Assembly (NCBI GenBank): GCA_041666305.1
Contig: JBAYHD010000005.1
Location: 1 to 55,207 of the forward strand
Source of the DNA: Minisyncoccota bacterium
GTDB lineage: Bacteria; Patescibacteriota; Minisyncoccia; Phycocordibacterales; Phycocordibacteraceae
Length of the DNA stretch: 55,207 nt
Direction: 5' to 3'
Position 1 is the stretch's first letter, and the number at the start of each line of letters is the position of its first letter. This document shows positions 2,949 through 25,258 of this stretch, in pieces. The position numbers and the translations under genes are program-made. Under the pieces are notes generated by a model, which was not told the DNA's origin, made no database searches, and saw only the letters and a program-made list of their open reading frames with translations.

Positions 2949-5057
2949 TTATGAGCCGCTCAATGCTTTGCGGGTGCGGGACTTTTTTATTTTCGGTCCG
3001 TTCCCTTCCAGTTTGTAGAGCTCGTCGCGGACGAGGGCGGCGGTTTCGAAGTCGAGTAACTCTACCGCCTCGCTCATCTCTTCCCTCTTTCTCTTTATAA
3101 ACTCCTTGGGGTCGTCCTTATAGGCAAGCGTATCGAGCACGAGGAGTTCATCTATCGTGCGCTGATGCTCGGTGCGCATAGATGCCGCGATGTCGTGTAT
3201 CTCTTTCTTGATGGTCTGCGGAGTAATGCCATGCTTCTCGTTATACGCGAGCTGTATTGCACGGCGACGGTTCGTCTCGCCGATAGCTCGCTCAAGGGAG
3301 CCGGTCATCACGTCGGCATACAGAATCACCCGCCCAAGAACATTTCGCGCCGCACGCCCGATGGTCTGGATGAGCGAGGTCTCGCTCCGCAGAAATCCTT
3401 CTTTATCAGCGTCGAGAATGCCCACGAGTTCCACTTCCGGTAGGTCGAGTCCTTCGCGAAGCAGGTTCACGCCGACGAGAATATCAAAGCCGCCTTGTCG
3501 GAATTTGGTGAGGATATCAATGCGGTCAATGGTTTTTACATCCGAATGCAAATATTCCGCCTTAATACCCTTCTCGCGCAGGAATGCCGCCAAGTCCTCC
3601 GCCATCTGCTTGGTGAGCGTAGTTGCGAGCGCGCGACCCCCGCGCTTAATAACTATTTCCGCTTCAGTAATAAAATCCGCGATCTGTCCCTTGTATTTCG
3701 CACTGTCATGTATGGCAGTGCCATTCCCTCCATATATGGAGGGAATCACTACGGCACCTTCGGAAACAGGGCGGACGGTGAGTTCGGGGTCGATGAGACC
3801 GGTCGGACGGATGACCTGCTCCACGATTTGTTCGGAATGAGCTTTTTCATACGGGCCCGGCGTCGCGCTCGTGTACAGCGCTTGGCCAATACGCTCTTCA
3901 AATTCTTCAAAACGGAGCGGACGATTGTCACGCGCGCTTGGCAAGCGAAAACCGTACTCAACGAGAACATCCTTACGCGACTTATCGCCGGCATACATAC
4001 CGCCGATTTGCGGGACGGTGACGTGCGATTCGTCTATGACGGTCAAGAAATCCGCGGAGCCGTCTTTCTTGTGCGGGAAATACGAAAGGAGCGTATGCGG
4101 CGGCTGGCCTGGAGCACGCCCGTCGAAGTGTCGCGAATAATTTTCAATGCCGCTCGTATATCCAAGCTCGCGAATGAGCGCGAGGTCGTGAAGCGTGCGG
4201 CGCTTGATGCGCTCGGCTTCGAGCGGTTTCTCTTCCCTTTTGAATTTCGCGAGTTGTTCTTCGAGCTCGAGCTTGATGTCCTCGATAGCGCGGTCGCGCT
4301 CTTCAATGCTGGTCACGAAGTGCTTCGCCGGGAATACGAAGACCGACTTTGGCTCTTTCATCTTTGCGCGCGAGACCGGGTCGAGTTGATGTATGGAAGC
4401 GACGACGTCGCCTTCGAACGTAATGCGGAAAATCGCACGCTCGTTCACCGGCATAAATTCAAGCGAATTGCCGATGGCGCGCACCTGCCCCGGATTGAGA
4501 TCGGCGTTCGTGCGCTCAAAATAAATGCCAACGAGCTTGCGAATAAGCGCCGCGCGATTCTCCGCGGCGCCTCGTTCTATCTTCACGTGCACTTTCTCAT
4601 ATTCCTCTGGCGACCCGAGGCCGTAGATAGCCGAGACCGACGCGACGATAATAACGTCTTTGCGTGTGAGGAGCGCCTGCGTCGCGGCGTGGCGGAGCCG
4701 GTCTATCTCGGCGTTTATCATCGCCTCCTTCTCTATATAGGTATCCGAGTGCGCGATATATGCCTCCGGCTGGTAGTAGTCGTAGTACGAAACGAAGTAG
4801 TGGACCGCATTCTCAGGGAAAAATTCCCGATATTCCTGCGCGAGTTGGGCAGCGAGTGTCTTGTTGTGCGCAAGCACCAGAGTCGGCTTATCGTGCTGGG
4901 CAATGACATTGGCCACGGTAAAGGTCTTCCCCGAGCCGGTCACACCGAAAAGCGTCTGATGTATCAAACCCTTCTCGAGTCCTTCTTCGAGTTTTTTGAT
5001 GGCCGCCGGCTGGTCCCCCGCCGGTGGGTATGGGGTATGCAATTTGAAATTAGCCAT
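2949..5057 (-). CDS. uvrB: Excinuclease ABC subunit B
   Basis: 702 aa; GVTGSGKT Walker A, DESH box, LREGLDLPEV, C-terminal UVR-like motif. Carries an extra segment containing two palindromes (3700-3746). Confidence 0.97.
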   Translation of the reverse strand: MANFKLHTPYPPAGDQPAAIKKLEEGLEKGLIHQTLFGVTGSGKTFTVANVIAQHDKPTLVLAHNKTLAAQLAQEYREFFPENAVHYFVSYYDYYQPEAYIAHSDTYIEKEAMINAEIDRLRHAATQALLTRKDVIIVASVSAIYGLGSPEEYEKVHVKIERGAAENRAALIRKLVGIYFERTNADLNPGQVRAIGNSLEFMPVNERAIFRITFEGDVVASIHQLDPVSRAKMKEPKSVFVFPAKHFVTSIEERDRAIEDIKLELEEQLAKFKREEKPLEAERIKRRTLHDLALIRELGYTSGIENYSRHFDGRAPGQPPHTLLSYFPHKKDGSADFLTVIDESHVTVPQIGGMYAGDKSRKDVLVEYGFRLPSARDNRPLRFEEFEERIGQALYTSATPGPYEKAHSEQIVEQVIRPTGLIDPELTVRPVSEGAVVIPSIYGGNGTAIHDSAKYKGQIADFITEAEIVIKRGGRALATTLTKQMAEDLAAFLREKGIKAEYLHSDVKTIDRIDILTKFRQGGFDILVGVNLLREGLDLPEVELVGILDADKEGFLRSETSLIQTIGRAARNVLGRVILYADVMTGSLERAIGETNRRRAIQLAYNEKHGITPQTIKKEIHDIAASMRTEHQRTIDELLVLDTLAYKDDPKEFIKRKREEMSEAVELLDFETAALVRDELYKLEGNGPKIKKSRTRKALSGS
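3723..3746. repeat. 24-nt perfect palindrome inside uvrB
   Basis: ATTCCCTCCATATATGGAGGGAAT; in-frame IPSIYGGN. It is preceded by the near-perfect 22-nt palindrome GCACTGTCATGTATGGCAGTGC at 3700-3721. Confidence 0.95.
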
Positions 5058-11240: not shown

Positions 11241-14018
11241 TTATTTCGTGAGATAACGCTCGCGAATCATATTTTCAACTGTAGCACGGTCGCGGCCATA
11301 GGTGAGTGAGGAAAGATGCACGAGGTCTTCCACTTGTGCGTGATTAAGTGCCGGCAAGTCCGGCGTTCTCATGTCAAAAGGCTTCTGCGGTATGCCGGCG
11401 GCAAGAATTTTCGCATACGCATTGCGCGTTTCAATATTCACAAAATCGAGCGCTTCAAAGACTGGAGCGAACTGCTTCGCGAAGAATTCCGCATCTTCCT
11501 CGCCCACACGGAAAACCGCCATGTTGCCCACATTGCCGAAGACCGCATCGCGCGTCTTCTCTTCTATCTGCTTGAGGAACTGATGCGCCACGGTGAGCGC
11601 AAGCTTGTATTTGCGTGCCTCCGAAAGAATGCCGGGAATGGAATCGGTCGTTACATTCTGGAACTCGTCTATATATAGGTAGAACGGCGGATACGGCGCA
11701 CGAGGATTATCGGCGCGCGAGAGCGCCGCCATAAAGAGCTTGCCGACGATGATAAGGCCGAGGAGATTCGCATTCTTCTCGCCCAGGCGGCCCTTGGAAA
11801 GATTGATGAGCAGGATTTTCTTTGTATCCATCACCTCGCGGAACTTGAACGACGATTCTTGCTGGCCGACGATGGGGCGAATGAAATCGTTCGCGGTGAA
11901 ATCGTCGAATTTGTTCGTGATGTACGGCACGATGTTTTCAAGCGACGCGTCGCCGCCGGCCTTCGATGCAATGTCGTTCCAAAATTGATTCACGATGGGG
12001 TTCATGCTCTTCGCAAGCTTCTCGCGGCGGAACTCGCTATTGGAAAGCACGCGTGCGATATCCAAAATGGTGGAGCCGCTTGCGGGGTCTTCCATCACGA
12101 GCTGAGTCGCGTTGCGGAAGTATTGTTCGAATGCCGGTCCCATACTTTCGGGCACATCGCCGTAGAGCCGGCGGAATATCATCAAAAGCTCGTTCACGAT
12201 GAAGGTTTTCTGCTCCGGGCGCGAAATATTGTATTCAAGGAAGTTCAGCGAGAACGGGCGCGAAAGGTCGGCAGGATCGAAATAAATAACGTCCTTGTAT
12301 CGCTCCGGCGGCACCGCGGCAAGAATATCCAAAATGTCCGAACCGTGCGGGTCAATGAAGCAGCACCCCTCGCCGTTCATGATGTCCTGAATGATCATGG
12401 ACTTCATCAGTCCCGTCTTACCGGTTCCGGTTTGACCGATGATATAGAGGTGGCGCAGGCGGTCTTCGGGATCGAGGTATACGCGCGTTTCCTGCCCGCG
12501 ATACGTGTTTATCCCCAGAAGAACCGACCCCACTGGCGCTTGCCCCGTTTGAAATCCGATTTCTAATGGGGCAGGCGCATGCGTGAAGCGCGATTGTTTC
12601 AGATGCGGCGAGGATTCAATACCCGATGGCGGGAAATGGTAGATGGTGGTGAGTTCGCGCAAAGACAATGGGAGCGCATCAGCGCCAGAAAGACGGAATG
12701 AAAAATTATCGAACTCTTCCTGTGCATGGTGCCCTTCGGCGCGTACGAACTTCAATTGATTTCCCTGCGTATTCCCGAATTGATTGAATGATGCTTCCAA
12801 ATCGCCGAGTATTTGTTCCGCCGTGCGCTCGTTCCCCGAGGAAACGACGAGTCGTATCGTCGCACCCACGATGGGCGAAGCGATCTTCTTCTCCACCTGC
12901 TCGATGTAGATTTTGTTCGCTTCCACTTGACGCGTCTCTGCCTGCTTCGCTTTCTCCACATCCTTCGGCTTGCTGGAGAAAAGTGTTTTGCCGATATCGC
13001 GCGCAAATTCTCCGAATGCAGTCTCAGGTGTGGAGAAGGCGGACGATTTTTTCTCTCCCTTACGCAACGCCTGCAAAATTTTCCGATAATGCTTCACATG
13101 CCGGTCGCCGCGCGGTTCAATGATTATCTGGAGCGCCGCGCCTTCGCCGATGTGCTCAATTTTTGCGAACGCATTGAGTATCGCATTGAGAGGGTCTTGG
13201 TCGAAGTCGGTGTAATCCTTGAGCGGAAGGACCGGATTGTCGGTAAAATGTGCGACCGAGGCGAGCGAGGTCCCGCCGCGCGCGAATACGTTGTAGTCGT
13301 ACGGCTGCGGGACCAGGTGCGCATCGGGGAATACAGCGAGCAGCTGTTTTTCGAAAAGATTGCGCTTGCTGTTCGGTACTGCGGCGTAGAACTGCAGTTC
13401 GGGGCTGTCTGCAGGCACGGCTAGCTCGAGCGCGAAATGATGCGACTCGCCTGAAACCGCGTCTCCAACGGAAAGCAGGCCGGAATAAAATTGCTCCATA
13501 GCGGAGATGAGCTCCTTGAGCGTCTTCGTGCGCACATTCGGCTCGGCATTTTTCGGCTCCGGCAGCGCAATTTCATACAGCGTCATGCGCAGTGCTTGAA
13601 AACGAGGCGTCTGTTCATCAAGCCCGGGTGCTCCGATACCGGCTGCAATGTACCGCACGAGGTAGCGATGAAAGTCATCCGCAATATGCGGGTCGCGAAG
13701 TTTTTCAAGCACGTGGAGTGCATTTTTGATGCCCTTTTCTTCCATGGTGCGACGCAGGGCGTCTATCGCGCCGGCTCCCCCGCCTAAATTGAGCTCGGCG
13801 AGTATCGCTTCCGCCTCGCTTTCTTTTGTTGCGTTGTTGATGCGATATTCGGGGGCAAGGATTTTTTCAGGCGCTGCCTGATGCTCGTGAATTGTTTCAG
13901 AAATGATCTGTGCGCGCTCCGCGCCTTGGCCCGCGAGTTCCGCTTCTTTGCTCGCGACCCGCTCGCGCAGATACGCGAGCTCTTCCTCGGGCGTGGACAA
14001 CTTCGGCGCTGTTTCCAT
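11241..14018 (-). CDS. FtsK/HerA-superfamily ATPase resembling T4SS coupling proteins (VirD4/TraG/TraD-like)
   Basis: 925 aa; Walker A IIGQTGTGKTG, CCFIDPHGSD, Walker B-like YLYIDEFQN, LTVAHQF. Confidence 0.75.
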   Translation of the reverse strand: METAPKLSTPEEELAYLRERVASKEAELAGQGAERAQIISETIHEHQAAPEKILAPEYRINNATKESEAEAILAELNLGGGAGAIDALRRTMEEKGIKNALHVLEKLRDPHIADDFHRYLVRYIAAGIGAPGLDEQTPRFQALRMTLYEIALPEPKNAEPNVRTKTLKELISAMEQFYSGLLSVGDAVSGESHHFALELAVPADSPELQFYAAVPNSKRNLFEKQLLAVFPDAHLVPQPYDYNVFARGGTSLASVAHFTDNPVLPLKDYTDFDQDPLNAILNAFAKIEHIGEGAALQIIIEPRGDRHVKHYRKILQALRKGEKKSSAFSTPETAFGEFARDIGKTLFSSKPKDVEKAKQAETRQVEANKIYIEQVEKKIASPIVGATIRLVVSSGNERTAEQILGDLEASFNQFGNTQGNQLKFVRAEGHHAQEEFDNFSFRLSGADALPLSLRELTTIYHFPPSGIESSPHLKQSRFTHAPAPLEIGFQTGQAPVGSVLLGINTYRGQETRVYLDPEDRLRHLYIIGQTGTGKTGLMKSMIIQDIMNGEGCCFIDPHGSDILDILAAVPPERYKDVIYFDPADLSRPFSLNFLEYNISRPEQKTFIVNELLMIFRRLYGDVPESMGPAFEQYFRNATQLVMEDPASGSTILDIARVLSNSEFRREKLAKSMNPIVNQFWNDIASKAGGDASLENIVPYITNKFDDFTANDFIRPIVGQQESSFKFREVMDTKKILLINLSKGRLGEKNANLLGLIIVGKLFMAALSRADNPRAPYPPFYLYIDEFQNVTTDSIPGILSEARKYKLALTVAHQFLKQIEEKTRDAVFGNVGNMAVFRVGEEDAEFFAKQFAPVFEALDFVNIETRNAYAKILAAGIPQKPFDMRTPDLPALNHAQVEDLVHLSSLTYGRDRATVENMIRERYLTK

Positions 14019-15287: not shown

Positions 15288-16001
15288 TTATACCAAATGC
15301 ACGACCGTGTAGAGCACGAGTGCGCCAAAAAGCGTCATGATGGTCGTGAGCGCGCGCGGATGCCGATGATGGCTTTCAGGAATGAGGTCGCTTGCCGAGA
15401 GGTAGAGGAACGAACCGACGAAGACGGCAAGTACGAGACCGATGGATGATTCGGGAATGCGGAAAAGAAGCGTGGAGGCGGCGCCGGCAACCGGCGCCGC
15501 CGCATCGATCAAGAGCCAATTAAATGCGCGACGCCAGCTCCCGCCGTTTTTCAGCACCAGGTTTACCGTATTGATACCGTCAGAAAAATCGTGCGTGAGC
15601 ACGGCGGCCGTTACGACGATGCCGACCGCAGCGGACGCCTGAAAGCCGATGCCGATCGCCATGCCGTCCAGAAAACTGTGCGTGGAGAGTGTGAGTGCGC
15701 CGAAAAACCCCCGCGGGGTGTTGATTTCTGAGTCTTCTTCGTGTGTGTGGAGAAGAATGAGTCGGTCAAGCAGCAAGTATCCGAAAAATCCAATGGCAAT
15801 GAAAAATGATATGGTCGCGCTGGTATGATATATCATACCAGCTTGAATCGCCTCGGGCAGGAGATCAAAAAGAGCAACGCCCGCGACCGCACCCGCCGAG
15901 AAGCCGAGGATGAGATGAAGCTTGTCGCGGAATCGCAGGGCGAATGAACCTCCTATAAAAGTGGCGACCGAAGCGGCCAGGGCGATATATAGGATATTCA
16001 T
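15288..16001 (-). CDS. ZIP family metal transporter
   Basis: Start trimmed to MNILYIALAA; HSFLDGMAIG and HDFSDGINT motifs. Contains the 24-nt palindrome at 15819-15842. Confidence 0.85.
   Translation of the reverse strand: MNILYIALAASVATFIGGSFALRFRDKLHLILGFSAGAVAGVALFDLLPEAIQAGMIYHTSATISFFIAIGFFGYLLLDRLILLHTHEEDSEINTPRGFFGALTLSTHSFLDGMAIGIGFQASAAVGIVVTAAVLTHDFSDGINTVNLVLKNGGSWRRAFNWLLIDAAAPVAGAASTLLFRIPESSIGLVLAVFVGSFLYLSASDLIPESHHRHPRALTTIMTLFGALVLYTVVHLV
15819..15842. repeat. 24-nt perfect palindrome inside the ZIP transporter gene
   Basis: GCTGGTATGATATATCATACCAGC; in-frame AGMIYHTS. Confidence 0.95.
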
Positions 16002-16727: not shown

Positions 16728-16807
16728 GTTGTAATTCCCTCCAAAAATTGAATGGATGTACCAGTATTCTGTCGTCCTTTTACAACTTTTGGTACCAAAA
16801 CGCAACT

Positions 16808-16843
16808 GTCTCAATTTTTATCCTATAGGATAAAAATTGAGAC
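16808..16843. repeat. 36-bp perfect AT-rich palindrome, intergenic
   Basis: GTCTCAATTTTTATCCTA|TAGGATAAAAATTGAGAC; lies between the DsbA terminator and the histidine-phosphatase gene. Confidence 0.9.
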
Positions 16844-16861
16844 ACCCGATAAAATACGCAA

Positions 16862-20097: not shown

Positions 20098-21240
20098 TCA
20101 TTGATACTGGACGTAGACTGGCGCGGGGGTGAGTTTCAAGACTTCGGCAGGCGTGAGGAGGCCGTCCGCCGGCGGTCGGCTGTCGTTTTTATAAAAAAGC
20201 TTGACGCCGGTGAACTGCACCGGTTCCGGCACGATGACTCTGCTGTAGGTATTTCTTTTTTTCGCTTTCGAGCCGAATCCGTCCATATCCATCACTATCT
20301 GCACTTCAGGTAGGGGCTGTATCTTTTCATAATTCGTTACCATGTCCTGGGTGAAGCGATGGATGATGAGCACCTTCGGCGGCAAGTGATTTTCGCGCAC
20401 AATGCGCGCAAGGTACTCGGCGGCATAATTGATATCAATGGCATCAAAAGTGCCGATGACTGTGCCGGGCCGCTCGCCGTGCTTCATCGAGAATTCCGGG
20501 TCGATGCCGAGGTGAACCTGCGGCATCTTCAAATACTTTTCAAGTTGCGGTAGCTCGTATTGAAGCGTACTGAGTGCCACCTGCACATCGAGGAATACAA
20601 GACCGTGTACCCGGTTCGCCAAATCGAGCGCGTGGTCTATCTGATCGTCCGGCATGCGCAGAATGTATTTCCCTTCTTTGCCGGCACCCGCCTGCGCAAC
20701 AGTCGCGATGTAGTGAATCGCCGGTACGGCCGGCGTCGCAGGGTCTGCGGCTGCCCATTTTGCCGTCGTGCTCGCGAGCATGGAGAGCATTTGATCGGTC
20801 GGGTATTCGCCGAGCACGCCCATGCCTTTTGAATAAAAATTGCCGTAATACGCGACGATGCGTTTGAACGGAAGAATGGCATCGGCATTCGGATAGACCG
20901 TGCTCACGGGCCAGAGGTCGCCCTGTACCTGCACGGACGACGAGGCTGTTGAGAAAGGGAGTGCGGATGTTGATGATGCGACCACCGCAGCCGCAACAGC
21001 TGCCGCCGCACTTTCATATATGATAGTGCTCGATGCAATATCGAAATGCGCGAGCGCGAGCATTCGTGCGTTGTAGTCCGCCTTATTGAGTTCGGGCAGC
21101 GGAATAAAGCGCTCTGCCACACTGGCAGTCTCCGAGCGATACTCGGTTGCGACGAGACCGGAGTAGCCGAATGCATAGACGACCGCGAACGCGGCGATGC
21201 TCGCGCCGGTCACTCGTGTCTTGGTACTCATTGGGGCCAT
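20098..21240 (-). CDS. Hypothetical membrane-anchored protein
   Basis: Start trimmed to MAPMSTKTRVTGASIAAFAVVYAF (TM helix); about 380 aa; no family recognised by eye. Confidence 0.5.
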   Translation of the reverse strand: MAPMSTKTRVTGASIAAFAVVYAFGYSGLVATEYRSETASVAERFIPLPELNKADYNARMLALAHFDIASSTIIYESAAAAVAAAVVASSTSALPFSTASSSVQVQGDLWPVSTVYPNADAILPFKRIVAYYGNFYSKGMGVLGEYPTDQMLSMLASTTAKWAAADPATPAVPAIHYIATVAQAGAGKEGKYILRMPDDQIDHALDLANRVHGLVFLDVQVALSTLQYELPQLEKYLKMPQVHLGIDPEFSMKHGERPGTVIGTFDAIDINYAAEYLARIVRENHLPPKVLIIHRFTQDMVTNYEKIQPLPEVQIVMDMDGFGSKAKKRNTYSRVIVPEPVQFTGVKLFYKNDSRPPADGLLTPAEVLKLTPAPVYVQYQ

Positions 21241-21256
21241 TCTACACTTTTTCACT

Positions 21257-21412
21257 TTATTTTTCTTTTGTGTCAGCCCAGAGTGCAAGCGCGGCAAGCG
21301 CGGCAAATATCGCAACTCGTAGCCAGTTCTGTGTCTGCGCCGCGTCGAGAAGCGCCGCACCGAAAAAGATAGCGAACACCGCAAAACTTGTTCCGAATGT
21401 GAGGTTTTTCAT
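21257..21412 (-). CDS. Small two-TM membrane protein (51 aa)
   Basis: Below the ORF-track size cut-off. Manual translation: MKNLTFGTSFAVFAIFFGAALLDAAQTQNWLRVAIFAALAALALWADTKEK. Its ATG lies 2 nt after the MazG-like stop. Confidence 0.45.
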   Translation of the reverse strand: MKNLTFGTSFAVFAIFFGAALLDAAQTQNWLRVAIFAALAALALWADTKEK

Positions 21413-22161: not shown

Positions 22162-22232
22162 CTGGGGGACTTGGAATCGAACCAAAATTAACGGCTTCAA
22201 AGGCCGCTGTCCTACCGTTAGACGATCCCCCA
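22162..22232 (-). tRNA. tRNA-Gln(TTG)
   Basis: Cloverleaf by eye: acceptor TGGGGGA/TCCCCCA, anticodon stem GCGGC/GCCGT, loop CTTTGAA, T-loop TTCGATT. Confidence 0.85.
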
Positions 22233-22282: not shown

Positions 22283-22315
22283 CTATTCTACTATTCGCGC
22301 GAATTAGAGAATAGA
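22283..22315 (-). promoter_or_regulatory. Second copy of the 33-bp palindrome, overlapping the arsR stop and upstream of tRNA-Gln
   Basis: CTATTCTACTATTCGCGCGAATTAGAGAATAGA (32/33 identical to the first copy). Confidence 0.65.
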
Positions 22316-22570
22316 GATGATGGAACGAGCCGGTGACGACAGATCGCGGGCCAGGGAGTAGAACATCTGCAGACTCCTCTGCTCGCGGTCCAGCAAATTC
22401 GCCGACGAGAGTATGCCCAGATGCTTTGACGTTGCCTTGAACGAGAGGCGGATTTCTTCGGCGATGTCGCCGACATTTGCCTCTTTTTCTTTCTTAACGA
22501 AACGCAGAATGGCGAGCCTGCGCCGGTTCGCCAGCGCTTTCAGAGTCCGTTCAAGTTCTTTGTCCGCCAT
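22304..22570 (-). CDS. ArsR/SmtB family transcriptional regulator
   Basis: 88 aa; LKALANRRRLAILRFV winged-HTH signature; flanked by two copies of a 33-bp palindrome. Confidence 0.8.
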   Translation of the reverse strand: MADKELERTLKALANRRRLAILRFVKKEKEANVGDIAEEIRLSFKATSKHLGILSSANLLDREQRSLQMFYSLARDLSSPARSIISIL

Positions 22571-22576
22571 ACGTAA

Positions 22577-22609
22577 CTATTCTACCATTCGCGCGAATTA
22601 GAGAATAGA
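22577..22609 (-). promoter_or_regulatory. 33-bp palindromic operator-like site 6 nt upstream of the arsR ATG
   Basis: CTATTCTACCATTCGCGCGAATTAGAGAATAGA, with core ATTCGCGCGAAT and outer CTATTCT/AGAATAG. The gene-strand arm contains TAGAAT 8 nt before the ATG. Confidence 0.7.
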
Positions 22610-24256: not shown

Positions 24257-25258
24257 CTATACGAGCGGACCAACAGCGTCAAGTGTCATTTTCTCGAGCT
24301 CAGTAGCGCTCTCCGCGGTCATGAGTTTTGTGCGCAGCTCCGCTGCGCCGGCAAAGCCGGTAACGAACGCTTTGATATGCTTTTTCAAAATCGCAAAACT
24401 TTTAGCGGGCGTTATCTTTTCAAAATCGTATGCGAGTTCAAGGAGCGCCGCGAGTTTCTCGGCGAGCGGCGTGTCTTCCGTTTTTCTGCCGGCGAATACC
24501 CATGGATTACCGAACATTGCACGGCCGAACATTGCACCGTCGCATCCTGACTCTGCAACTTTTGTCCGCGCGTCTTCCATGTCCTGCACGTCGCCATTAC
24601 CGATAAGAAGCACTTTCGGATTTACGCGGTCGCGCAACGCGACCGCTTTTTTCATCAGCTCCCAATCGGCGGGCACGAACGACATCTCTTTGCGCGTACG
24701 CAAATGGAGAGTGATGGCGACGGGATTCGCTTCAAGAAGCGCCGTCAGCCATTCATCAAGCGACTCTTTGTTATATCCGATGCGTGTTTTCACCGAGACC
24801 GGCAACGGACTGGCTTCCTTAGCGGCACGAATAAGCTCCTTGGCGAGCGCGGGATTCTTCACCAATGCTGCGCCCGCGCCCTGTTTCTCAATGCTTTTAT
24901 CCGGACAGCCCATATTGAGGTCAACACCATCAAAACCTAGCTCGGCAACGAGCTTCGTCGCATACGTAATCATCTCCGGTTTGCCGGAAAAGATCTGTGC
25001 GGCAATGGGCCGCTGTTCTTCTGTAAACTGCAAATCCCGCAATAGGGGGTTGCTGGTATGATATATCATACCAGCACGCGATTCGATTTCCCCCCTTTCG
25101 ATCAGATGGAAAAGTCCGTCGGCCGAAACGAATTCCGTCCAGAACACGTCCGGCTTCCCATGTTTCGCCACGAGCGCGCGAAAAGCAACGTCGGTGACGT
25201 CCGCCATCGGTGCCATCACGAAAAATGGCTTAGGTAAGCCTTGCCAGAACGATTTCAT
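24257..25258 (-). CDS. tRNA-dihydrouridine synthase
   Basis: Start trimmed to MKSFWQGL; MAPMADVTD, DLNMGCP and VKTRIG motifs. Contains the 24-nt palindrome at 25052-25075. Confidence 0.85.
   Translation of the reverse strand: MKSFWQGLPKPFFVMAPMADVTDVAFRALVAKHGKPDVFWTEFVSADGLFHLIERGEIESRAGMIYHTSNPLLRDLQFTEEQRPIAAQIFSGKPEMITYATKLVAELGFDGVDLNMGCPDKSIEKQGAGAALVKNPALAKELIRAAKEASPLPVSVKTRIGYNKESLDEWLTALLEANPVAITLHLRTRKEMSFVPADWELMKKAVALRDRVNPKVLLIGNGDVQDMEDARTKVAESGCDGAMFGRAMFGNPWVFAGRKTEDTPLAEKLAALLELAYDFEKITPAKSFAILKKHIKAFVTGFAGAAELRTKLMTAESATELEKMTLDAVGPLV
25052..25075. repeat. Identical 24-nt perfect palindrome inside the dus gene
   Basis: GCTGGTATGATATATCATACCAGC; in-frame AGMIYHTS. Confidence 0.95.

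Follow-up and report, generated by a model that had tools for sequence, protein, structure and literature searches.

The window analyzed in this work, a stretch of 55,207 nucleotides taken as a whole, carries on its minus strand three genes, coding for a ZIP-family metal transporter, a tRNA-dihydrouridine synthase (Dus) and UvrB, each of which contains a long perfect palindrome translated as a part of the protein (Table 1). The palindromes of the ZIP and Dus genes share one exact 24-mer, GCTGGTATGATATATCATACCAGC. The initial annotation, made from the letters of the window, had described this 24-mer as an exact repeat in two hosts, read in both as AGMIYHTS and lying amid unrelated flanks, and had pointed to the third palindrome, in uvrB, with the same frame and a central IY. 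The window search reproduced the repeat, translation of the minus-strand hosts gave the same peptide, the flanks of the two copies proved to be unrelated, and the dyad centre of the uvrB palindrome was found between the ATA (I) and TAT (Y) codons, as it is in GCTGGTATGATATATCATACCAGC. The frame shared by the ZIP and Dus copies is the weaker part of this evidence, since frame 2 of GCTGGTATGATATATCATACCAGC contains the stop codon TGA on both strands and only two frames are thus open.

Table 1. Palindromes of the window and the genes in which they lie
Feature	Positions	Strand	Reading or Pfam family	Remarks
uvrB gene, 702 aa	2949..5057	-		host of the third palindrome
24-nt perfect palindrome ATTCCCTCCATATATGGAGGGAAT, core CCCTCCATATATGGAGGG	3723..3746	.	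IPSIYGGN	in uvrB; family F3
ZIP-family metal transporter gene, 237 aa	15288..16001	-	PF02535	host of the first copy of GCTGGTATGATATATCATACCAGC
24-nt perfect palindrome GCTGGTATGATATATCATACCAGC	15819..15842	.	AGMIYHTS	in the ZIP gene
18-nt core of the ZIP-gene palindrome	15822-15839			
22-nt near-palindrome GCACTTTCATATATGATAGTGC	21008..21029	.	TIIYES	in ORF 20098-21384 (-)
Dus (tRNA-dihydrouridine synthase) gene, 333 aa	24257..25258	-	PF01207	host of the second copy of GCTGGTATGATATATCATACCAGC
26-nt perfect palindrome	25051..25076	.	(R)AGMIYHTS(N)	in the Dus gene; includes GCTGGTATGATATATCATACCAGC at 25052-25075

Apart from these two copies, the 55-kb window contains no further match to GCTGGTATGATATATCATACCAGC with up to three mismatches, and none was obtained in 100 dinucleotide-preserving shuffles of the window. 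Perfect palindromes with arms of at least 12 nt number four in the window and zero in 30 Markov shuffles, and 4 of the 17 ATATAT hexamers of the window are the centres of long dyads of the kind listed in Table 1. Both copies of GCTGGTATGATATATCATACCAGC are situated mid-gene, 160-200 nt inside their hosts and not at promoters, which is atypical for an operator. The near-palindrome GCACTTTCATATATGATAGTGC differs by one mismatch from ACTATCATATATGATAGT, a palindrome bracketing a TrpR-like gene (see below) at another locus, L117; possibly, a copy from a different palindrome family is decaying here. The ORF that contains it gave no Pfam match.

The sigma-70 and terminator scans of the window called the copies of GCTGGTATGATATATCATACCAGC and the uvrB palindrome as neither, and the Rfam scan recognized tRNAs only, with no family at the palindrome positions. 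These scans bear on a function at the level of RNA, i.e., on an mRNA hairpin (a processing site, terminator or attenuator) selected for its structure. The 24-mer does fold into a 10-bp stem (-9.1 kcal/mol as DNA, z = -6.4), and some copies in other genomes are flanked by A- and T-runs in the manner of bidirectional terminators; however, it is the sequence that the copies have in common and not structure alone, their arms are perfectly Watson-Crick paired without G-U pairs, and the copies in the window lack a T-tract. We regard this weak explanation as hardly probable at all.

Host genes with and without the palindrome

The ZIP protein has a near-constant length (mostly 237 aa) across nearly all of the best 120 orthologues. 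Residues homologous to the palindrome site usually read LGTKYHSA and in a minority of proteins xGMIYHTx, and intermediate peptides exist; in the closest relative (91% identity) the palindrome position is occupied by GGA ACC GGC TAT CAC AGC. The carriers, about 10 of the 120 nearest orthologues, are polyphyletic, being scattered over a rough NJ tree. The palindrome in ZIP overlays native residues with the length of the protein unchanged, and a clean 24-nt insertion is excluded for this gene by the nearly equal lengths of the orthologues.

The palindrome of Dus lies within an insertion-prone loop that is absent from most orthologues, and about 15 of the 120 carry the palindrome. The extra loop segment comprises 7-16 aa, differs by lineage and shows no clean 24-nt unit; in other lineages the same loop holds a 20-nt perfect palindrome of another family, F2 (CACTACGATATATCGTAGTG), a GC-rich hairpin of ~41 nt or non-palindromic inserts. 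In the Dus gene of GCA_030688305.1 (L083, 487-1497), an in-frame GC-rich imperfect hairpin of ~41 nt is tandemly duplicated in this loop (RSEVSPCLLSRREVSPCLSS).

In UvrB, the loop with the palindrome is an insertion relative to most bacteria, and other lineages have whole domains there, according to a search of a representative library that was too coarse to resolve the loop alleles. Among 120 orthologues at 85-91% identity, about half have no insert; in the others the inserts are numerous and unrelated, several of them being palindromic peptides centred on IY. Palindrome carriers are a minority of the UvrB proteins. Following VRPVSEG in this loop (orthologues P0392-P0510, equivalent to 3690-3765 of the window), the families SLSPTVVRDNEH, HPMSRPEVGHRMS and EPMRGFTKPP recur, which look like in-frame GC-rich hairpin repeats.

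The initial annotation had implied that an 8-aa mobile unit was inserted into protein loops and had envisaged relatives with alleles lacking it. The idea of loop insertion held in part: insertion-prone or hypervariable loops do accommodate the palindromes of Dus and UvrB, but ZIP shows no change in length. The discrete mobile unit itself is unsupported, given the variable Dus segment, the unrelated UvrB inserts, and the lack of both duplication and transposase; no target-site duplications and no fixed unit length were seen at the palindromes in the ZIP, Dus and UvrB comparisons, and no transposase genes were found within the window. A clean 24-nt insertion is likewise unsupported for Dus and UvrB, where the segments vary.

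In-frame residence in protein-coding genes is nevertheless observed, and in this respect the palindromes resemble the Rickettsia palindromic elements (RPE) and PARCELs, which place palindromic DNA in frame within the genes of reduced-genome bacteria and add or replace peptide segments at tolerant positions. RPEs, however, are insertions of 100-150 bp. The unit described here measures 18-26 nt, need not represent inserted DNA, as ZIP demonstrates, and has a cognate regulator gene associated with it. The discrete insert of a MITE or RPE, with terminal inverted repeats, duplication and change of length, was found in none of ZIP, Dus and UvrB.

Spread and exactness of the palindrome families

The near-exact search envisaged in the initial annotation, which brought up no more copies in the window, yielded one other exact match to GCTGGTATGATATATCATACCAGC in the species-representative genomes, located in an intergenic region of a Candidatus Kaiserbacteria MAG. 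The genome of the window is itself Kaiserbacteria-like (CPR). The 18-nt core GGTATGATATATCATACC (family F1) was found in at least 80 stretches of the species-representative genome set, about 50 of which, among the matches listed, belong to Patescibacteria with several copies per genome; related genomes have at least 5-16 copies of the core each. In 410 kb of listed loci, 59 copies of the core are exact, 3 have one mismatch, none has two and 1 has three. Within long ORFs it is read as GMIYHT about 27 times and as YDISY about 3 times. Orthologues of MurD, HolB, MutY, Mpg, TrpS, RecG, UvrC, TsaD, ZIP and Dus share the core at homologous sites, and it occurs also in UvrB, ArgS, PyrD and enolase (the names of the hosts were assigned by eye from the sequences). 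Dozens of independent assemblies contain the core, and orthologues have it at corresponding places, which made us drop another weak explanation, that of an assembly or adaptor artefact.

In Flavobacteriaceae (L005, L008, L011, L015, L025, L028, L040, L045, L050, L069, L073 and others), GGTATGATATATCATACC occupies an orthologous intergenic position, with a small HTH gene of the XRE family ~50 nt downstream of it and no TrpR-like gene nearby. We treated these copies as a separate or chance occurrence, the adjoining HTH gene being unrelated and of XRE type.

The exact 24-mer shared by two non-homologous genes had been ascribed in the initial annotation to the level of DNA and not to coding convergence, and the codon comparisons are in agreement with this. 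The 18-mer is found at the aligned position in 19 pairs of orthologues that represent 10 gene families (61-87% amino acid identity), while outside the motif 44% of identical-residue codons agree; the exactness of these pairs is partly a matter of ascertainment, as they were found by exact search. Elsewhere in the compared genes, codon agreement is about 44-54% of identical residues. ZIP genes were also picked by the peptide GMIYHT alone, which avoids the bias of exact search, and the exact 18-mer was present in 5 of these 7, the other two having one and two synonymous mismatches. One ZIP allele, GMAYHTS, has non-palindromic codons. The motif is conserved at the DNA level.

Family F2, with the palindrome ACTACGATATATCGTAGT, came to light in a Dus gene, and at least 120 stretches of metagenomic sequence contain it; its solo copies in coding regions read TTIYRS or LRYIVV. 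One and the same residue of UvrB carries F1, F2 or F3 depending on the lineage, and in a pair of UvrB proteins that are 79.5% identical F2 is found in one and F1 in the other at this residue. In enolase, similarly, the same residue carries F1 or F2 by lineage. Family F3, that of uvrB in the window, recurs at the same UvrB loop of another CPR genome, and in no locus of the scan did it adjoin a TrpR-like gene; as a widespread family it is unsupported, the genome scan having given 8 matches, which is about chance, with one of them (UvrB) informative.

Family F2 was also observed, in its other open frame, inside a recurring reverse-transcriptase-like ORF (..ELEx-LRYIVV-FLRDxLKLELHP) of the metagenome loci L137, L143, L150, L153, L154, L158, L159, L175, L185, L192, L198, L201 and L208. 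The ORF may belong to a multi-copy retroelement that carries the site; alternatively, it may be a target of the site.

The distribution of the core permits one to consider an uptake or chromosome-organisation signal, i.e., a motif built up by biased DNA uptake or recombination, or a density-dependent site of a nucleoid, segregation or partition protein, with the position within genes being incidental. Like the Neisseria DUS and Haemophilus USS, the palindromes are exact short motifs in coding regions with preferred frames, a bias toward genome-maintenance genes (here UvrB, UvrC, RecG, MutY, Mpg and HolB; in Neisseria the bias of DUS is similar) and a possible origin by substitution, which in our case would proceed in situ over compatible residues, as the intermediate ZIP peptides illustrate. 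The copies are also dispersed around the closed 993-kb chromosome OY969413.1, where the core lies, among the matches listed, at about 280, 495, 851 and 909 kb; for comparison, sites of the parS, NBS and matS type cluster regionally and have ParB, Noc or MatP as a partner, and the candidate partner here is TrpR-like and not ParB-like. Known uptake sequences, however, occur roughly once per kb and are ~20-50 times denser than the motif described here (2 copies in 55 kb of the window, tens per genome), lack intrinsic palindromy and are not accompanied by an HTH gene. From an uptake signal one would not expect so tight an association and co-variation with the gene of a cytoplasmic HTH regulator, and no regional clustering of copies was seen among the matches listed. 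This explanation is weak as well, and we consider it very unlikely.

A TrpR-like gene bracketed by the palindromes

Pairs of cores 460-530 bp apart enclose an ORF of ~140 aa, which matches the Pfam family PF01371 (Trp_repressor) with 29.8 and 45.9 bits at a cutoff of 27, the YerC/TrpR models of NCBIfam and PDB structures of a 'putative Trp repressor'. A PF01371 protein of the TrpR fold thus adjoins the palindrome in related genomes, and no TrpR-like gene was detected by tblastn within the 55-kb window; the link of the 24-mer to the regulator therefore rests on relatives. The protein-alignment search of the genome set revealed 36 TrpR-like loci, all of them in Patescibacteria, and the same perfect palindrome was found on both sides of the gene in 31, on one side in 4 and on neither in 1. 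A dyad at the promoter of the regulator, as in operators of the TrpR family, is present in those 31 loci; the copies in the window are intragenic. The upstream palindrome is situated 0-180 nt before the start codon and the second copy just after the stop codon. The bracketing palindromes are lineage-specific, e.g., GGTATGATATATCATACC, AGTATGATATATCATACT, ACTATGATATATCATAGT, ACTACAGTATACTGTAGT, CTTACGATATATCGTAAG, ACTCCAGTTAACTGGAGT, GGATTGATATATCAATCC, CACCCATATATGGGTG, ACTATCATATATGATAGT and GCTACCATATATGGTAGC; in PFBL01000020.1, the gene of the Kaiserbacteria TrpR-like protein adjoins the 26-mer GGCTGGTATGATATATCATACCAGCC. F2 brackets a TrpR-like gene in 17 of 80 metagenome loci among the matches listed, and the proteins concerned are 30-49% identical to those of the F1 type. 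This association of site and gene is directly visible in the compared loci.

The same comparison reveals co-variation of the site with the protein. The recognition helix TRQT is found with the half-site TATGATA, SPST with TACGATA and SPVT with ACAGTA, and in a second TrpR-like subfamily the helix xDT goes with a TGATATATCA centre and T, N or Q in that position with a CATATATG centre; helix classes thus partition with half-site classes, the sequences being phylogenetically related and the counts referring to lineages and not to independent events. The same F1 core, on the other hand, brackets two TrpR-like subfamilies with differing recognition helices. At the locus L105, a second TrpR-like paralogue (3042-3386) has a distinct palindrome of its own, CAACTTTATCTTATAAGATAAAGTTG, upstream of it, which suggests paralogue-specific sites within one genome.

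In the flanks, 93% of the half-sites have a purine at -3, and the base at -1 is T or A; the site is therefore ~24 bp long. With T at -1, the sequence becomes TGG-TATGAT, an extended -10-like element, on both strands. In several loci the inner hexamer TATCAT was located by eye ~7 nt upstream of the ATG of the TrpR-like gene, which suggests that its transcripts may be leaderless or have a short leader. The gene order glyA, TrpR-like gene, argS is conserved in 8 species, with the downstream palindrome preceding argS; the regulator gene is therefore resident and not mobile.

The enclosure of a gene between two palindromes resembles the REP/RAYT systems (REPtrons), in which short hairpin palindromes are dispersed over the genome and two of them bracket the gene of a presumed recognition protein. 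By analogy, the 24-mer could be a selfish REP- or MITE-like hairpin repeat, spread by transposition, hairpin-templated copying or short-patch gene conversion and surviving only in intergenic DNA and tolerant loops, with the TrpR-like gene encoding its RAYT-like cognate recognition protein. Such an element would agree with the dispersed, multi-copy and nearly identical palindromes, with the bracketed gene, with the patchy, polyphyletic distribution among orthologues, with the loops of Dus and UvrB being hot spots also for other hairpin families, some of them GC-rich, with F2 residing in a multi-copy reverse-transcriptase-like ORF, and with a weak match of the bracketed protein to the HTH of IS630 transposase. 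It would also agree with the symmetry of the palindromes, which often runs past the conserved core into non-conserved, unique flanks for up to 52 nt (some copies at TrpR-like genes are perfect over 46-52 nt), an extension that a dimeric regulator does not require. RAYTs, however, are HUH/Y1 transposases, whereas Pfam and NCBIfam gave only TrpR/HTH matches for the bracketed protein and revealed no HUH, DDE or recombinase domain and no PF01797, so that an IS200/RAYT-type transposase is excluded; furthermore, REPs are extragenic and degenerate, whereas the copies described here are often intragenic and nearly invariant. The synteny conserved in 8 species, the absence of target-site duplications and of a defined insert length, the unchanged length of ZIP, the rarity of decayed copies and the lack of a transposase in the window also speak against such an element. 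All in all we consider it rather unlikely; its selfish, hairpin-driven, REP-like dynamic stays the main rival of a regulatory function, possibly operating alongside protein binding, because the copies are polyphyletic, the hot-spot loops hold unrelated hairpins and the symmetry extends into unique flanks.

Putative operator-type sites within coding regions

Considering that the palindromes bracket TrpR-like genes and change together with the encoded proteins, that the palindrome overlays native residues in ZIP and occupies hypervariable loops in Dus and UvrB, that neither duplications nor a transposase were found, and that the site is exact while synonymous sites around it are scrambled, the 24-mer is best read as a cognate operator-type site rather than a classical mobile element. 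We think it probable that it is a copy of the recognition site, an operator-type dyad, of the ~140-aa Patescibacteria-specific TrpR/YerC-like HTH protein, and we infer that this protein binds it. The TrpR-like protein would bind, probably as a dimer, to a site of ~24 bp, R-N-W-GGTATGATATATCATACC-W-N-Y. At the gene of the regulator itself, one site lies 0-30 nt upstream of the start and overlaps a -10-like TATGAT/TATCAT (with T as the flank, a TG-n extended -10), and a second site, placed before the neighbour, directly follows the stop codon. This bracketing layout is the one that might be expected of autoregulation combined with control of the neighbour gene.

The intragenic copies, in turn, are kept at the DNA level, with GMIYHT (strongly preferred) or YDISY as the only tolerated readings. 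They would arise either by substitution over compatible native residues, as in ZIP and probably MurD, or within hypervariable surface loops, as in Dus, UvrB and RecG. Our best guess is that these copies would control the transcription of the host gene in cis, via a roadblock or a repressible internal or antisense promoter. The sporadic presence of the palindromes among ZIP, Dus and UvrB orthologues fits rapid gain and loss or selfish spread equally with a conserved regulon.

The regulators TrpR and HisR (YerC) bind palindromes of about 20 bp with a lineage-specific consensus (PMC9413887). In both the E. coli TrpR/trp operator and the Firmicutes HisR (YerC), as in the case described here, a small HTH protein of the TrpR fold is combined with a perfect dyad of 18-20 bp, the AT-rich centre of the dyad overlaps a -10-like hexamer, and a copy with a lineage-specific consensus is located at the regulator's own gene (PMC9413887). 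The differences are that here a site also follows the gene, that extra in-frame copies exist inside unrelated coding sequences, and that the TrpR-like proteins are extended at the C-terminus by a basic segment of about 50 aa. The bracketing site of one lineage, ACTCCAGTTAACTGGAGT, shares its GTTAAC centre with trpO. Operators within coding sequences are represented by lacO2 in lacZ, galOI in galE and the PurR site in purB, which can act by looping or roadblock and cooperate with promoter operators. Those sites are single and degenerate, whereas here exact copies stand alone, mid-gene, in many unrelated genes.

Our literature search found nothing linking Trp-repressor-like proteins to CPR bacteria or describing these palindromes. 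What seems to be unusual, judging from the sequences compared, is the genome-wide, in-frame intragenic spread of a putative protein/operator pair of the TrpR family. As a more far-reaching and doubtful extension, Patescibacteria may possess an undescribed genome-wide system, in which a TrpR-like family co-evolves with exact lineage-specific palindromes written into housekeeping genes, perhaps especially those of DNA repair (UvrB, UvrC, RecG, MutY, Mpg, HolB). The sites of such a system may force defined peptides into protein loops, and it may constitute an intragenic roadblock or antisense-promoter regulon, conceivably SOS-like, that replaces promoter-based control in compact genomes; alternatively, it may be a new type of 'operator element' that propagates itself and is recognised by an HTH protein without catalytic function.

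Patescibacteria constitute a large share of bacterial diversity, and their gene regulation is almost unstudied; the present finding points to a conserved family of regulators with a clear, computable recognition code. A putative protein-binding DNA word appears to be maintained in coding sequence strongly enough to fix 6-8 aa in unrelated proteins, and this could account for a part of the short 'insertions' that seem so puzzling in proteins of CPR bacteria. In annotation, the peptides GMIYHT, TTIYRS and PSIYGG should accordingly be treated with caution as probably DNA-driven rather than protein-driven. With both the protein and the 24-bp site defined, a direct experimental handle is available.

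The layout of a regulator bracketed by its own palindrome is repeated within the window by an ArsR-family HTH gene of 88 aa (ORF 22304-22570, minus strand), which is enclosed by two 32-nt imperfect palindromes, 22283-22314 and 22577-22608, with the sequence CTATTCTAC(T/C)ATTCGCGCGAATTAGAGAATAG. The end of the upstream copy is 6 nt from the ATG, and the downstream copy is ~50 nt upstream of a tRNA gene (22162-22232). A 38-nt perfect palindrome, TGTCTCAATTTTTATCCTATAGGATAAAAATTGAGACA (16807-16844, -15.4 kcal/mol as DNA), located in the spacer that separates a DsbA-like gene from an unannotated ORF, was called terminator-like on the minus strand. The 925-aa protein encoded at 11241-14018 of the minus strand, with HerA/DUF87 and C-terminal TraG/TraD matches, is by these matches a predicted coupling-protein-like ATPase of a type IV secretion or conjugation-like system.
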